Below are positions 56,338-61,062 of a stretch of DNA of 64,000 bases, one piece after another. The DNA lies in NCBI GenBank assembly GCA_051382295.1, contig JBBCAW010000021.1, forward strand, positions 32,001-96,000, in the 5' to 3' direction. Within the stretch, counting starts at the first letter, position 1; each line of letters opens with the position of its first letter. The notes beneath the pieces are model-generated. The model was not told the origin of the DNA. It saw only the letters and a program-made list of their open reading frames with translations, and ran no database searches. The position numbers and the translations under genes were made by a program. Source of the stretch: Bdellovibrionota bacterium FG-1 (GTDB lineage: Bacteria > Bdellovibrionota > UBA1018).

Positions 56338-57363
56338 TTACTTCGATTCTGAGTGTTCTAGCGCTGCAATGTCATGCTGAAATACTTTTGTTCGAATGAG
56401 TTCTTTGAGTTCATTGAAATTAAAAAGACCCTTGTTACATAGGTACCCGTAACGATCAGCAACATCGACGAAGTGCACGAGTTGAGCATAGGTTAGGCCC
56501 GGCACGTAATTTTTCACCTTATTATAGAGATGGAAAATAGTTTGACCGCCACCATGATGACTTTCATAAATCATACCGGCCATTTCCTTGGCTTCAGCTA
56601 GCTTTATTTCGTAGGTCGCCTTTTCTACCGCCGGCCAAACTCCTAGAGTCAGCAAACCCTTGAAAAAAGTAGCGCTCACACTGCCCTCGTTGCCGTAGTT
56701 TTCAAGCTCGCGGTCGTGGTTCCATCTCCAGTTAATCATGCGCACGCTGAGTGTATAGGAGTCGATACAGCCTGAATAGTCCTGTGTGTTGGAGGGTTTC
56801 TTGACTGAAAGTCTCAGTACAGTTTCAGGCACGAGATAATCGGAAATCTGGTCCGAAATCCCGTAATCCGAAGAGGCACCACGATTGTGTTCGACTGCAG
56901 CGAGTCCGGCGTATTCGTGATGAATGAGTCGATATTGTTTCGGCGCAGCCGTCGCGGCGAACCGCTCGGTGTTGCAAAGGATGTGGGGCAGACTATCTTT
57001 GACAGAAATGAAGCCTCGGCAGGTTTTGAATTGTCCATTCACACTTACCTTGAGTTCCTCATCTTGGGTGGCGGCTTCTTCTGCCAGCGTGACTGTCCCA
57101 ATTACAACAGCATGGCGAGGAAGGACTTTTCCCATTCCGCTGGCATAGCTCTCGTAAGTGACCGAGGGAGGAAGGGCTAGGCCACGAGCGCCCCCTTCGC
57201 TGATCCATTTCAAGAGATCCGCACGGATCTCATCGATCCTCATTTCGGAGGTAGCATCGCCGCCTCCGCCAGCGCCAACGCCGGCAAATGCCACGGGCAA
57301 GTTCAGCAAAGACGTGGCAAGCACTCCAAACATAAAATAGCGGGACACGGTAAGGAATTTCAT
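56338..57363 (-). CDS. Hypothetical secreted protein
   Basis: Signal peptide ending AFA followed by GVGAGGGGD; LIHHEYAGL..VE motif; start set to ATG 57363. Confidence 0.75.
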   Translation of the reverse strand: MKFLTVSRYFMFGVLATSLLNLPVAFAGVGAGGGGDATSEMRIDEIRADLLKWISEGGARGLALPPSVTYESYASGMGKVLPRHAVVIGTVTLAEEAATQDEELKVSVNGQFKTCRGFISVKDSLPHILCNTERFAATAAPKQYRLIHHEYAGLAAVEHNRGASSDYGISDQISDYLVPETVLRLSVKKPSNTQDYSGCIDSYTLSVRMINWRWNHDRELENYGNEGSVSATFFKGLLTLGVWPAVEKATYEIKLAEAKEMAGMIYESHHGGGQTIFHLYNKVKNYVPGLTYAQLVHFVDVADRYGYLCNKGLFNFNELKELIRTKVFQHDIAALEHSESK

Positions 57364-57381
57364 AAAACACTTTCTCTTTCT

Positions 57382-57516
57382 GGGCTGCACCAGCGGTCTG
57401 CACTCTAGTGGAGTTGACTTAATAAGTCAACTATTATCGTTCTCAGCATCCCCTTTCCGAATTTCCGAGGATGCCGAGAACGGTCAGCGATTCTCCCCGG
57501 TCGTCAGGTGCAGCCC
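57382..57516 (-). promoter_or_regulatory. Candidate structured 5' leader RNA (multi-stem)
   Basis: Closing stem GGGCTGCACC/GGTGCAGCCC, a 14-bp stem at 57438-57451/57469-57482 (G-U wobble only on the minus strand) and palindrome AGTTGACTTA-A-TAAGTCAACT. Confidence 0.45.
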
Positions 57517-57623
57517 GAAGGGACTGGGGATTCTTGCTGACGAACGGGTTATATAATGCGGTGCGCCTTACGGATAGATCAATTTTAGCTAATTTGATCT
57601 GCTGAATTTAGTTTTTTGTCTAA

Positions 57624-58176
57624 TAGTACCTTAGAAGATCCCCGGACGTAAGTCCGGGGGTGTATAAGGCTCCCAGGTCTTCTTTTCGTGGTAGAAGCTC
57701 GGTTCATGAGACTACGGAGACAAGCCCACTGCGTATACCGCACGATGTATCACATTGTATGGATACCGAGATATCGATACGCAGTGCTAAACAAGGGTGT
57801 AGCAGCGTACTTGTTGATAAAGTTGGATGAAGTTAGAAAATATCATCCTGAAATTGAATATATTGAGCGGAATGTCCAGCCCGACCACGTTCATATCGTT
57901 GTAAGTTTCCCGCCCAAATATAGCATCTCGCGCGTCGTGCAGCTAATGAAGCAAAACACAGGCCGCGAGCTGCGAGCAAAATTTGAGTTCATACGCAAAC
58001 GTTATTACGGGCGAGGGGGGATGTGGTCGGCTGGGTATTTCGCGTCGACCGTGGGCTTGGACGAGGAGATGATAAAGCGGTACGTGAAGTATCAGCAAAA
58101 AGAAGACCTGGGACAAGCGGAGCTTGCATTGCCCCCTGGTTCCCGAGTGCCACGGACGTAAGTCCGTGGATATCTA
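57624..58176 (+). mobile_element. IS200/IS605-family insertion sequence (tnpA only); ends approximate
   Basis: Subterminal hairpins CCCCGGAC-GTAA-GTCCGGGG (57640-57659) and CCACGGAC-GTAA-GTCCGTGG (58150-58169) flank a Y1 transposase. Ends inferred from the IS608 guide/cleavage rules (AGAT/CTAA; GAGT/TCTA). Confidence 0.85.
57706..58161 (+). CDS. tnpA: IS200/IS605 family Y1 (HUH) transposase
   Basis: YHIVWIPRYR, HUH motif DHVH, PPKYSIS, WSAGYFASTVG and the catalytic YVKYQ. Confidence 0.96.
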   Translation: MRLRRQAHCVYRTMYHIVWIPRYRYAVLNKGVAAYLLIKLDEVRKYHPEIEYIERNVQPDHVHIVVSFPPKYSISRVVQLMKQNTGRELRAKFEFIRKRYYGRGGMWSAGYFASTVGLDEEMIKRYVKYQQKEDLGQAELALPPGSRVPRT

Positions 58177-58208
58177 ATGAGGTTATCCCATTTCTCCGAA
58201 ATGGGAAT

Positions 58209-58961
58209 ATGACTTACGAAAACATGCGATCCCGTATTCAGGTGGTGACTCTCGATAATTTTTATCATTCCTTATATGAACCCAACGCCTGCCAGGTTTT
58301 CATCGATATGGTCAAGTTGCGCGCGGCGGGTTTTGGTCCTGAATATCCTAAATCCTTTTTACCGTTGGAACGGGGTGATTTTTTTGCGCGCCATCATGTG
58401 ATTTATCTGGTGACCGACGGCCAAAGAGAACCCGTTGCTTGTTATAAGCAAATACCCTTGTCGCTTTGTGATTTTTATAAAAATGATTTTCCTCTTTCGG
58501 TCATGATGAAAATGATCGGGGCGGTTTCTCATCTTCAGGAGGTAGAGCGGTTGATCAATCAAGCCAAGCAGACCACACGTGAGGTGATTTACGGGGGAAG
58601 CTTAACCCTCTCTAAGAATTTTCGATTGAACCATCCTTCGGAAAAAGAGCTGTTTTTCGACTTAATGGCTGCTCTTTTTTGTCTCGATTATGCCGAGTTT
58701 GGAAAGCCTTCATGTATTATTGGCGCTGCGACTCGCTTTAAGATCGATCGGTTTTTTGAAAAGGTAGGGTATGAAAGAATGAAAAGTTTCGGTCATTTAC
58801 TAGACCCGGTGCCTGTTATTTCGGCCGCGAATGAACCTGTGGTATTAATGTCTACTGATTGTGTAAGTGAATATGCCAAAAGCTGTCTCGTTGATAATCA
58901 AGACATTCTTGCTTCGCGCGAATGGATCAGAAACAGGGATGAAGAACTCATGGCTGCGTAA
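58209..58961 (+). CDS. Putative GNAT-fold acyltransferase, LuxI/FeeM (N-acyl synthase)-like
   Basis: Motif order resembles LuxI/FeeM: KLRAAGF..EY...LE.GDFFARHHVI...PVACYK...FPL...GSLTLSKNFR...RFFEKVGY. The upstream part of the ORF-track call is IS sequence. The ORF is clear; the function is tentative. Confidence 0.5.
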   Translation: MTYENMRSRIQVVTLDNFYHSLYEPNACQVFIDMVKLRAAGFGPEYPKSFLPLERGDFFARHHVIYLVTDGQREPVACYKQIPLSLCDFYKNDFPLSVMMKMIGAVSHLQEVERLINQAKQTTREVIYGGSLTLSKNFRLNHPSEKELFFDLMAALFCLDYAEFGKPSCIIGAATRFKIDRFFEKVGYERMKSFGHLLDPVPVISAANEPVVLMSTDCVSEYAKSCLVDNQDILASREWIRNRDEELMAA

Positions 58962-58965
58962 GAGG

Positions 58966-59877
58966 CTAGTGTGAAACGACGGACAAACGAACCCCAGTGT
59001 CCCGAACGCGATGGCTGGAGTAATCAAAGACAAAGCGGCACACGGGATCTCCGCGGTGCACACATCGAGTTTCTTGGATGTTGGCTAGCGGCATGCCGAT
59101 AAAGCCCGGAAGTCCCGCGAACAATCCAGAGCGGCCGGTGCAAACATGGGGGTTGCCAACCTCGTGTACTCCAAATGCCTCGGAAATCTCAGGTTTGGTT
59201 TTGCTTTCCAGGATGCATTGTTCATGATCCAATTTCATCAGTTGATAGTCGCAGTTTTGCTCAAAGTCCCGAAGCAAAGTCATATAGGCCTGCTCGAGTA
59301 CGCTTTGGGTGGAGCGGAGCTGTGAAAGTTGTTTCCCCATCGGGGTTTCGCGCAGATTGACCACTTGGTGATGCCCTATGGCTTGAAGGTCATTCTCGCT
59401 GAATCCTAGGTTGTTTCGTAGGTAACTATACAGCTCAGTCATAAACCGAATATTGATCGAATCGGTCATCCTGCCCCGCCAAAAGCTGCCTTTGATCTGA
59501 AAGTGCCGATTAATGGTGTGCGTAATATGGGAACCGCGATACTTTTCGGCAAAGCGCATGACATTGATCGCCGAATGTTTGCGACTATTGGCCGCAAAAG
59601 TGTATTTCGGGTGAATCGAGCAGTCGGGGTTTTTCTGGGCGAAAGCGAGGGTATCGAAGTCGAAAGTGTTCTCGTCAAAATCTGAAAGATTCATATCGAG
59701 TTGTTCCGACAGGCGGTACAAACTCAAGAGCGTGAGCGTACTTCTTCTGGATAGGATGAATTGGTATTTTTTTTGAGAAATTTTAAGATATTTGCTGGCC
59801 CAGACGTCTTTTGTGACGCCAAGCGCGGCTCTCGCGGTTTCGAGAGTGTTCACCAGTCGCTTGTCGGTCTCAAACAT
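58966..59877 (-). CDS. Degenerate XRE-type HTH + V4R (4-vinyl reductase-like) ligand-binding domain protein
   Basis: C-terminal HVCTGRSGLFAG...ETRCVHRGDPVCRFVF (V4R motif); N-terminal LETARAALGVTK...LSLYRLSEQLDM; TAATG coupling to the upstream gene. Confidence 0.7.
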   Translation of the reverse strand: MFETDKRLVNTLETARAALGVTKDVWASKYLKISQKKYQFILSRRSTLTLLSLYRLSEQLDMNLSDFDENTFDFDTLAFAQKNPDCSIHPKYTFAANSRKHSAINVMRFAEKYRGSHITHTINRHFQIKGSFWRGRMTDSINIRFMTELYSYLRNNLGFSENDLQAIGHHQVVNLRETPMGKQLSQLRSTQSVLEQAYMTLLRDFEQNCDYQLMKLDHEQCILESKTKPEISEAFGVHEVGNPHVCTGRSGLFAGLPGFIGMPLANIQETRCVHRGDPVCRFVFDYSSHRVRDTGVRLSVVSH

Positions 59878-60767
59878 TAGGCCGCTATCTTGACCCGATA
59901 TAAGCATCGAGGAGCCCCTTTATACAGATTTTCGACCAACGTCACCTTGACGGATCGGTGCCCGCTATAGGTGCTAAAGTTTTGAAAAAATCCTCGGTCA
60001 TAATGGGCAAAGAAATCGCCCAATAAAGGATTGTTTTGGTAATCGAAGGCCTGCATGTGCGCGGCCGGCTCTACCGCTATTTCGAGTTGCTCAGCGCTGG
60101 GGTTGACGTTGAGTAATGAGTAATGAAAGTTGGTCGAATATTTTGCGGCGTTTTCGACAAAGCCCGTGAGAAGCGCAATTTGATTGGACGATATAAATTC
60201 ATAAAGATGATGGAGGGAGCCGTGCATTTCGGGGTTACCGGCCGTGCGGGTCGCTAGTTCAGCATCTTTGCTGGTCATGCTATTTTTTCGAACGATGGTT
60301 TCACAAAGATCAATCGTGAAATTGAAGTTAATGGTTGCGCTGAGGTTGATAAAAAAATCGGGGTCGAGCTTGATGTCACTGAAAAATCGAGCGAGCCCTC
60401 GTTCTCCCAGTGTTTCTTTCGCGAAGTCGAGAAGTGGCAGGAGTGACCGGACTTTGGAGCCTTTTTCAAAGGCGTAGCGCTGAGGGAGGCGAATGGCGCT
60501 CTCTTTTTGTTCCATTTCAAACAAACCATGGGTCAAGGAGTCAGGAGAAATTCCTGAGGATTGGCAGAAAGTAAACCATTGGGACGCTGTCAGGAATTGT
60601 TTTCCACTTTCAATGCGCGAAAGCGCACTTTGGTCCAGCCCCAGCGTGGGGGCCACTTCAGTTTGGTTGAATCCCAGGTGCTTTCGGGTGGCTTGTAAAA
60701 GCTTGCCGATGCGCATAACGATCGCCTGATCTGGGTCGACTTTCTTTGAAATCCTATTTTCTATCAT
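59877..60767 (-). CDS. XRE/HTH_3 transcriptional regulator with a C-terminal V4R-like domain
   Basis: Canonical HTH IGKLLQATRKHLGFNQTEVAPTLGLDQSALSRIESGKQ; C-terminal ENLYKGAPRCLYRV aligns by eye to the neighbour's V4R end. Confidence 0.75.
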   Translation of the reverse strand: MIENRISKKVDPDQAIVMRIGKLLQATRKHLGFNQTEVAPTLGLDQSALSRIESGKQFLTASQWFTFCQSSGISPDSLTHGLFEMEQKESAIRLPQRYAFEKGSKVRSLLPLLDFAKETLGERGLARFFSDIKLDPDFFINLSATINFNFTIDLCETIVRKNSMTSKDAELATRTAGNPEMHGSLHHLYEFISSNQIALLTGFVENAAKYSTNFHYSLLNVNPSAEQLEIAVEPAAHMQAFDYQNNPLLGDFFAHYDRGFFQNFSTYSGHRSVKVTLVENLYKGAPRCLYRVKIAA

Positions 60768-60879: not shown

Positions 60880-61062
60880 GTAGTGCATCCGTCCGCGTCA
60901 GAGTCCTCGAGCATGGTGCTCATGTCCTCTTTAGCGGCTTTTACGCTTAAAGTGGGCTTTACATGAGTACTCAACTTTACGTTGGCAATCGTTGGTAATG
61001 AATGGGTTGCACGGCTGTAATTTTTTTAGGGGCAAGGCTGTTCGACGGTCTTGCCCCTTTTT
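60880..61062 (+). ncRNA. Candidate stand-alone structured ncRNA (6S-like rod with a central bubble)
   Basis: Extended -10 TGcTAGACT (60864-60872). Stems GTGCATCCGT/ATGGGTTGCAC, GTGCTCATGT/ACATGAGTAC and CTTTAGCG/CGCTTAAAG. Ends in an intrinsic terminator. Confidence 0.5.

Follow-up and report, generated by a model that had tools for sequence, protein, structure and literature searches.

Can three adjoining genes of a Bdellovibrionota genome form a cell-to-cell signalling circuit in which proteins other than LuxR receive the signal? The genes, called SYN, R2 and R1 here, lie in the window, by which we mean the whole 64,000-nucleotide stretch that was analysed (Bdellovibrionota bacterium FG-1, GenBank assembly GCA_051382295.1, contig JBBCAW010000021.1, positions 32,001 to 96,000 of the forward strand). 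An earlier note on this DNA had proposed an autoinducer-like circuit with XRE-V4R proteins in place of LuxR. The proposal gained support from the fold of SYN, its co-occurrence with the receptors, a palindrome in relatives, a conserved Ala-Ala terminus and the co-divergence of SYN with R2, while "autoinducer" remains a function that we infer; we put the probability that SYN, R1 and R2 make up such a circuit at about 60%.

SYN (58209-58961, plus strand) is an open frame of 250 amino acids (aa), its TAA ending at 58961, and encodes a GNAT-fold acyltransferase that is the predicted signal or metabolite synthase. Four bases (58962-58965) separate it from the stop codon (58966-58968) of the convergent gene R2 (58966-59877, minus strand), which encodes 303 aa from its TAATG start, or 313 aa from an alternative in-frame ATG at 59907, and combines a degenerate XRE-fold helix-turn-helix (HTH) with an H-NOX/V4R-fold domain; it is the predicted ligand-sensing subunit. 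R1 (59877-60767, minus strand, 296 aa) is the upstream gene of the minus-strand pair, its TAA overlapping the R2 ATG at 59877 (TAATG), and carries a canonical XRE HTH followed by a homologous domain; it is the predicted DNA-reading subunit. Frames and coordinates were as first described: a 250-aa gene, a gap of 4 nt and a convergent, TAATG-coupled gene pair.

Linkage of synthase and receptors across the phylum

The phylum sample comprised 401 genomes, among which related genomes are not independent. SYN was found in 102 of them and the receptors, at E 1e-10, in 129. With a receptor threshold of E 1e-30, both were present in 91 genomes, SYN only in 11, a receptor only in 9 and neither in 290; at E 1e-10 the corresponding numbers were 96, 6, 33 and 266. 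We analysed 96 loci with about 6 kb on each side, 93 from the 113 matches of the phylum scan and three from another search; the other 20 matches were excluded as short-contig, fragmentary or weak, and when seven genomes of these excluded matches were fetched later, SYN adjoined a receptor in all seven.

A full-length receptor was present in the fetched locus of 86 of the 97 synthases, and 65 of the 97 abut a convergent receptor; in a stricter set the convergent neighbour of SYN was R2 in 60 of 62 cases. The expectation that the gene neighbourhood is conserved across genomes was thus borne out. The layout is not due to chance, because these 65 homologous synthases abut a convergent receptor and because the source genome holds a second complete SYN/R2/R1 module of identical geometry on contig C89 (G000:C89:27833-30440; L001:7834-10441), with 28% identity in SYN. 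The two partners also diverged together: SYN and R2 distances were correlated over 82 pairs (rho 0.62), against a mean of 0.18 and a maximum of 0.36 in 300 within-family permutations, and the nearest neighbour was identical in 32 of the 82.

The C89 module has no adjacent methyltransferase or ThiF gene; within 6 kb of it lie a DpgA-like type III polyketide synthase, a flavin adenine dinucleotide (FAD) monooxygenase and a receiver-plus-HTH protein. A solo R1 on contig C71 (L002:5659-6528) is 52% identical to the R1 of the window, and the contig ends about 560 bp upstream; its neighbours read, from their sequence, like genes of what is presumably reductive pyrimidine catabolism. The LuxR autoinducer-binding domain (PF03472) had no match in this genome, which is 97.7% complete, with E. 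coli as positive control.

Four of the six SYN-only genomes (receptor E 1e-10) carry a short XRE protein together with an unnamed protein of 230-260 aa (L120, L130, L133 and L135), and in L120 and L130 an iron-containing redox enzyme is present as well (Haem_oxygenas_2 for L130); the XRE-H-NOX receptor was possibly replaced there by another receptor type. Among ThiF-type loci that lack R1 (L132, L134, L136-L138, L140, L143, L193 and L199-L201), one or two stand-alone XRE proteins of 90-110 aa often lie beside R2 and look like a DNA-reading subunit that has lost the sensor part.

The acyltransferase and its partner enzymes

Searches with SYN against Pfam, NCBIfam, PADLOC and PDB sequences returned nothing useful, and word-index searches returned only two to three proteins. 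With one SYN homologue as query, a scan of genome contigs gave two short chance matches; a plasmid search with a SYN homologue gave none. A full HMMER scan for homologues yielded 452 clusters (50% identity) at E 0.001, and 147 sequences were aligned; neither SYN nor any of the 147 matched LuxI (PF00765), FeeM (PF21926) or another GNAT family of Pfam at E 0.1.

The AlphaFold2 model of SYN (mean predicted local distance difference test score, pLDDT, 96.5) has a GNAT fold. Compared with 48,161 chains, it matched FeeM best (2g0b; Z 16.1, root-mean-square deviation 2.8, 178 residues aligned), followed by RpaI (Z 15.9, 3.2, 196 aligned) and LasI (Z 15.2, 3.2, 178 aligned); these three count as tied, since rows within 1 Z were treated so. 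A generic P. aeruginosa GNAT, TofI (14.1) and MesI came after them, and Foldseek agreed with this ranking, with FeeM at rank 2. The GNAT fold, on which the proposal had been made to depend beforehand, is therefore present in the model, and the FeeM and LuxI enzymes are the closest to it.

SYN keeps the family residues R38, G41, F42, Y46, P52, E54, D57, H62, K80, Y128, R176-F177-K178 and G187, while eight plasmid LuxI proteins share R25, F29, L33, W35, E44, D46, D49, R70, F84, E101, R104 and L127. In a profile alignment with a probability of only 12%, R25, F29, W35, D46, D49, R70 and F84 of TraI fall on K/R38, Y/F42, Y46, D/E54, D57, K/R80 and F94 of SYN; the frequencies in the SYN family at this cluster, read from the same 12% alignment, are K 63%/R 36%, Y 86%/F 13%, Y 94%, D 90%, D 100% (D57) and K 52%/R 44%, the position of LuxI W35 being Tyr in SYN and LuxI E44 having no counterpart. 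Against 21 FeeM-family proteins of the phylum, the profile-profile probability was 59.5% over 91 columns. Canonical FeeM-family proteins (PF21926) are separate from SYN; they scored over the cut-off in 88 of 201 phylum genomes, often in frames longer than 400 aa, and the PF21926 search of the genome matched another protein, not SYN. The Tyr/Tyr pair of SYN resembles Tyr27/Tyr32 of FeeM, for which Table 1 of PMC9654057 also lists the beta-4 Glu as Glu94. From its model, SYN likely works like the LuxI and FeeM amide synthases, yet it belongs to neither family.

A PF00765 search of 101 genomes of the order gave three weak matches, a result of little weight since none of 14 control genomes responded. 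The best of the three was rejected as a LuxI protein: it adjoins an acyltransferase gene and was read as a lipid N-acyltransferase.

The last two codons of SYN (58953-58958, plus strand) encode Ala-Ala, an ending conserved across the SYN family: 65 of the 97 synthases in the loci have it, as do 96 of 149 representatives. For comparison, it ends 45 of the 2640 open reading frames (ORFs) of the genome that reach 250 aa or more, 0 of 89 R2 proteins and 0 of 42 methyltransferases. C-terminal Ala-Ala ends are ClpXP-type degradation tags. The end of SYN is likely such a tag and would make the synthase short-lived.

The module, described at first as three genes, should be extended, as a methyltransferase or a ThiF enzyme usually belongs to it too. 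Of the 96 loci, 41 have the methyltransferase only, 35 have ThiF only, one has both and 19 have neither. The S-adenosylmethionine (SAM)-dependent methyltransferase (42 loci) lies at a median of 49 bp from SYN, the stand-alone ThiF proteins (36 loci) are all 267-390 aa long, alpha/beta hydrolases are encoded in 56 of the 96 loci, and in some loci an acyl-CoA (coenzyme A) dehydrogenase is among the neighbours. Four of four ThiF proteins scanned had no nitroreductase domain, and none of the top neighbour clusters was recognised as a nitroreductase. On the FastTree tree the methyltransferase and ThiF labels switch at least 6-8 times on starred branches. With such usual partners, a tailored N-acyl amino acid is a likelier product than a homoserine lactone.

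SYN of the window falls in a starred clade whose other nine members are all of the methyltransferase type. There is no ThiF in its own locus, nor does the genome encode any member of the linked ThiF subfamily (best E 2e-30, against 6e-63 for the worst member). Some 19.7 kb from SYN on the same contig, at G000:C21:110682-111557, is a true member of the methyltransferase subfamily (E 1e-88). It stands behind a PGA_cap-like gene, the two spanning G000:C21:109463-111557 outside the window; in L020 a PGA_cap-like gene stands between SYN and the methyltransferase, both directly after SYN. We infer that the distant methyltransferase is the cognate partner of SYN. This methyltransferase, whose best NCBIfam match is BioC, far below the cut-off, would be a carboxyl methyltransferase; those of Stieleria clusters are proposed as ring C- or O-methyltransferases.

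An unequal receptor pair and the upstream regions

R1 matched HTH_19, HTH_3 and HTH_31 of Pfam over the cut-off, NCBIfam adding only weak HTH matches, so that the N-terminal XRE-type HTH ascribed to both proteins is seen directly in R1; in R2, where Pfam does not see it, the family profile found it (3op9, E 2.5e-8), and the model shows it at residues 9-81 (Z up to 8.8). The V4R-like domain ascribed to both stood likewise in part. R2 matched PF02830 (V4R) at E 5e-5 with 23.7 bits, below the curated cut-off of 31, and R1 had no PF02830 match; the model of R2 (pLDDT 92.6) nevertheless shows a whole H-NOX/V4R domain after the XRE-fold N-terminus, and R1 acquires the domain by homology, the two families being homologous end to end (287 columns, hhalign probability 99.9). 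The R2 domain matched So H-NOX best (Z 14.7, root-mean-square deviation 3.1, 180 aligned), then VirS (11.4), Bet3 (10.2), PoxR (9.1) and DmpR (9.0). In an atlas search with the R2 sensor, every score was under 0.9.

The two receptors share this architecture and are not equivalent. In a midpoint-rooted tree of 141 full-length receptors from the loci (52 R1 and 89 R2), R1 and R2 split into separate, old clades (Shimodaira-Hasegawa-like approximate likelihood-ratio test 100/100); of 43 tandem pairs, 39 begin with R1. HTH_3 was matched by all 65 aligned R1 proteins, with R28, Q35, Q46, S50 and E53 conserved at 90% or more, but by only 4 of 89 R2 proteins, in which the fold is kept and the R1-type HTH residues are not; V4R was matched by 23 of the 89. 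A pair of equivalent receptors was rejected on these grounds in favour of a DNA-reading subunit, R1, and a sensor-type subunit, R2, roles that are predicted from sequence.

In R2 of the window, C256, E279, C282 and C290 (numbered from the ATG at 59907) have the 23-3-8 spacing of the MopR zinc site, whose ligands are given as C155, E178, C181 and C189 (10.1101/2023.07.11.548514), and form a candidate site. R1 of the window keeps only two of the four positions. Heme sensing of the H-NOX kind by R2 was rejected for lack of a conserved His: at what we take to be the positions of the proximal His and of the Y-x-S-x-R motif, no His column exceeded 14 of 89 in R2 positions 172-223, and the motif is absent from the consensus. 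None of the 89 R2 or 65 R1 proteins matched the HNOB family of Pfam.

The R1-R2 complex, the one pair modelled, was predicted with a score of 0.70 against 0.00 for the best of three controls, at a mark that is reached by 116 of 157 solved pairs and 2 of 215 mismatched pairs; contact agreement between runs was at least 77% and partner pLDDT at least 81. In one genome with two tandem modules, R1 and R2 are joined in frame into a protein of 602 aa (L026, 8112-9920). The two are predicted from the model to form a heterodimer. A separate ORF of 541 aa (L198:7892-9517) joins an alpha/beta hydrolase to an R1 receptor, either as a real fusion or through a lost stop.

Upstream of the genes, the dyad ATTC-n6-GAAT was found before 16 of 97 SYN (1.1 expected) and 10 of 52 R1 genes (0.7 expected), and not before R2; the refined palindrome has the consensus TATTCC-n4-GGAATA. 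When a matrix was trained with 18 SYN sites and nothing else, it recovered 13 of 52 R1 upstream regions, 2 of 88 for R2 and 6 of 271 for distant genes; it also matched the upstream regions of 9 of 42 methyltransferases, 11 of 36 ThiF genes and 10 of 58 hydrolases, and many of these genes diverge from SYN across a common region. In ten loci, L095, L102, L105 and L111 among them, the palindrome stands upstream of SYN as well as of R1; in two (L081 and L091) this is through one shared region. A motif shared among the module promoters of the source genome itself was not found.

The upstream region of SYN in the window is interrupted by an insertion sequence (IS) that the earlier note had overlooked. 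This IS200-group element (57624-58177, plus strand; tnpA at 57688-58161, no tnpB; Y1_Tnp and transpos_IS200 matches) was inserted 3' of TCTAA (57619-57623) and ends 31 bp before the SYN ATG, as read from its junctions. It separates SYN from its native upstream region (57391-57623), whose inverted repeats (57412-57432 and 57576-57600) do not match the family palindrome. A 9-bp inverted repeat (58186-58206, plus strand) stands directly before the SYN start codon and overlaps the likely ribosome-binding region. The element is multi-copy, its ends being found again on contigs C76, C75, C58, C41 and C138, and on sequence grounds it may have silenced, deregulated or rewired this copy of the module.

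A sigma-70 scan gave 2 matches where 4.8 are expected by chance. Scans of metagenomes for close R1 relatives gave no match or HTH-only matches, and no IS-free allele of the locus was seen in them; no RNA run was listed as a carrier, and four DNA runs of a single study contain near-identical IS200 pieces, covering essentially the IS only and not its flanks. On the other side of the native upstream region, and divergent from it, an ORF of 350 aa (56338-57390, minus strand) has a hydrophobic N-terminus and a Gly-rich stretch and no Pfam or NCBIfam match. A strong, terminator-like hairpin of 14 pairs (61028-61058, plus strand) lies between the R1 upstream region and a DEAD-box helicase gene.

A proposed signalling circuit, rival readings and known systems

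In an autoinducer-like circuit, SYN would join a fatty-acyl group, donated by acyl-ACP (acyl carrier protein) or acyl-CoA, to an amine-bearing acceptor, an amino acid being the most likely. The partner enzyme would cap the carboxyl of the product, as a methyl ester in the methyltransferase type, including the copy of the window, or by ATP-driven ring closure in the ThiF type, as in OxzAB, and the linked alpha/beta hydrolases would turn the product over. The R1-R2 heterodimer would sense it, R2 binding the ligand and R1 reading the operator, and so control the promoters of the module itself; the half-life of SYN would be short and the product would diffuse between cells. Within such a circuit the product is probably a capped N-acyl amino acid; a SAM-derived lactone is rather unlikely, and another amide more so. 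A fuller picture is tentative, and we would sooner doubt than assert it as a whole: a native cell-to-cell signalling system of Bdellovibrionota, in which the N-acyl amino acid comes from a new GNAT family, interchangeable partners add caps (methyl ester or oxazolone) that give different dialects, and a protease tag shortens the life of the synthase. The feedback loop would be closed by an obligate XRE-H-NOX/V4R heterodimer, of which one subunit reads DNA and the other binds the signal at a zinc-stabilised, heme-free pocket.

Several observations weigh against the circuit. The generic P. aeruginosa GNAT (1xeb) scores close behind the amide synthases (Z 15.0, 146 aligned), and the sequence links are weak, with hhalign probabilities of 12% to LuxI and 59.5% to FeeM. 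The beta-4 Glu-x-x-Arg of LuxI proteins (E101 and R104 of TraI, invariant in eight of eight) falls on Y128 (86%) and S131 (S 52%, G 22%) of SYN, and where the FeeM beta-4 stretch E-I-S-x-L-A is aligned with Y-G-G-S-L-T of SYN, its Glu (Glu94), which we take to be catalytic, falls on Tyr. The likeness to LuxI and FeeM that had been judged by eye therefore holds for the fold but fails by profile and at the beta-4 residues. Mutual exclusion of methyltransferase and ThiF was not significant on independent tree pairs, which were too few (median p 0.25), and the co-divergence of SYN and R2 is controlled for host descent to the family level only. Among the nine receptor-only genomes there is one in which a divergent SYN is hidden; the other eight have no synthase in the fetched locus. 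All four zinc-site residues are present in only 29 of 89 R2 proteins, and the confident R1-R2 contacts lie in an ordinary XRE dimer helix, so that the pass may reflect a likeness to solved XRE dimers. Finally, 17 of the 26 palindrome-bearing loci come from one family, and the palindrome had no match in the upstream regions of the window or of C89 (best scores under 4.5); feedback at the locus of the window is thus deduced from relatives only.

The same enzymology would also suit a biosynthetic cassette for a lipid or antimicrobial derived from an N-acyl amino acid (OxzAB, Tyz or stieleriacine-like), in which pathway-specific regulators sense a precursor, an end product or a stress cue and no signal passes between cells. 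An enzyme like the N-acyl amino acid synthases (NAS) stands here with ThiF, methyltransferase, hydrolases and sometimes acyl-CoA dehydrogenase; clusters of NAS, ThiF and methyltransferase are known in Stieleria (PMC12479983), and OxzAB products were induced by antibiotics (10.1101/2020.06.11.147165). Every genomic feature that we found is also compatible with an intracellular feedback loop. What speaks for a signal instead is the constancy of synthase and receptor at the core of the loci, around which the tailoring genes change or drop out (neither in 19 of 96 loci); several divergent modules per genome, together with solo receptors, are also reminiscent of signal dialects and of eavesdropping. 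A first enzyme that carries a degradation tag would serve a switchable signal better than it would serve bulk synthesis, and the top neighbour clusters contain no exporter or resistance gene. We consider the cassette unlikely, though it is the most serious of the rivals.

Two further readings appear improbable. The V4R-fold regulators could respond to a hydrophobic compound of foreign origin (prey or competitors) and induce the GNAT, methyltransferase and hydrolases to inactivate it, as detoxification or signal quenching: the closest characterised transcription-factor sensors of this fold (MopR, PoxR, DmpR and VirS) bind outside compounds, the enzymes are of common modifying types, and antibiotic acetyltransferases are also listed in the SYN fold search. 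However, SYN aligns best, over 178-196 residues, with synthases of long-acyl amides and conserves the LuxI-like acid/base cluster, and an ATP-consuming ThiF in 36 of 96 loci fits poorly. Slightly less probable again is that SYN acylates a protein or a transfer RNA, for example the receptors, as Bet3 is palmitoylated, or that it is a GNAT toxin held by the XRE pair. Bet3/TRAPPC3, including a palmitate-bound structure, is indeed a fold neighbour of R2, R1 has weak matches to antitoxin-type HTH domains, and GNAT toxins appear low in the Foldseek list; yet convergent, separately promoted genes are unlike a toxin-antitoxin layout, the unstable-looking partner is the enzyme and not the regulator, PADLOC gave no match for SYN or R2, and the small-molecule tailoring partners would be left without explanation.

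If the autoinducer-like circuit makes a signal, a module present in 91 of 401 genomes and invisible to Pfam would put an end to the view that these predators produce no autoinducer; a phylogenomic preprint reports no predicted acyl-homoserine lactone synthases or LuxI/LuxR homologues in Bdellovibrionota genomes (10.1101/2020.11.01.364414). The module also extends the uses of the H-NOX/V4R fold by a heme-free one linked to XRE, and its three to four genes make the autoinducer question directly testable in E. coli. No published description of it was found in the open-access literature.

Among known systems, LuxI/LuxR pairs (LasI/LasR, EsaI/EsaR-type convergent pairs, the CoA-dependent RpaI and BjaI) are like SYN in GNAT branch and perhaps in N-terminal residues. 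The module shares their tail-to-tail layout of synthase and one-component regulator, as in the luxI/luxR pair of L180, and resembles them in the palindrome before the synthase of its relatives and in the existence of solo receptors. It differs in that SYN lacks PF00765 and has the beta-4 E101/R104 replaced, that its receptors are two unlike XRE-HTH plus H-NOX/V4R subunits, and that methyltransferase or ThiF tailoring partners are present. The FeeM and oxazolone pathways (OxzA/OxzB, TyzABC, TrzAS and the stieleriacine clusters) are similar in the fold of SYN, its Tyr/Tyr pair and the ThiF or methyltransferase neighbours, an N-acyltransferase with ThiF making acyl-oxazolones in OxzAB (10.1101/2020.06.11.147165). 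SYN nevertheless lacks PF21926 and the beta-4 Glu; OxzAB, Tyz and Trz combine N-acyltransferase and ThiF with a nitroreductase, a domain missing from the module ThiF relatives scanned; and the module has a dedicated receptor pair, of which the available parts of the sources on those pathways make no mention.

R2 resembles MopR, DmpR, PoxR, VirS, H-NOX and Bet3 in its whole-domain fold and has the MopR-spaced Cys/Glu/Cys/Cys. The output of R1 and R2 is, however, an N-terminal XRE HTH and not a sigma-54 ATPase, AraC domain or cyclase, R2 has no conserved heme-ligating His, and the sensor is predicted to pair with a DNA-reading paralogue. The general logic of a lipid-signal synthase with a cognate one-component regulator is already known. 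In the gamma-butyrolactone systems of Streptomyces, a small-lipid synthase (AfsA) is flanked by two paralogous TetR regulators, receptor and pseudo-receptor, with divided roles; the logic of the module is similar to theirs and the folds are unrelated, AfsA and TetR there, GNAT and XRE-H-NOX/V4R here.

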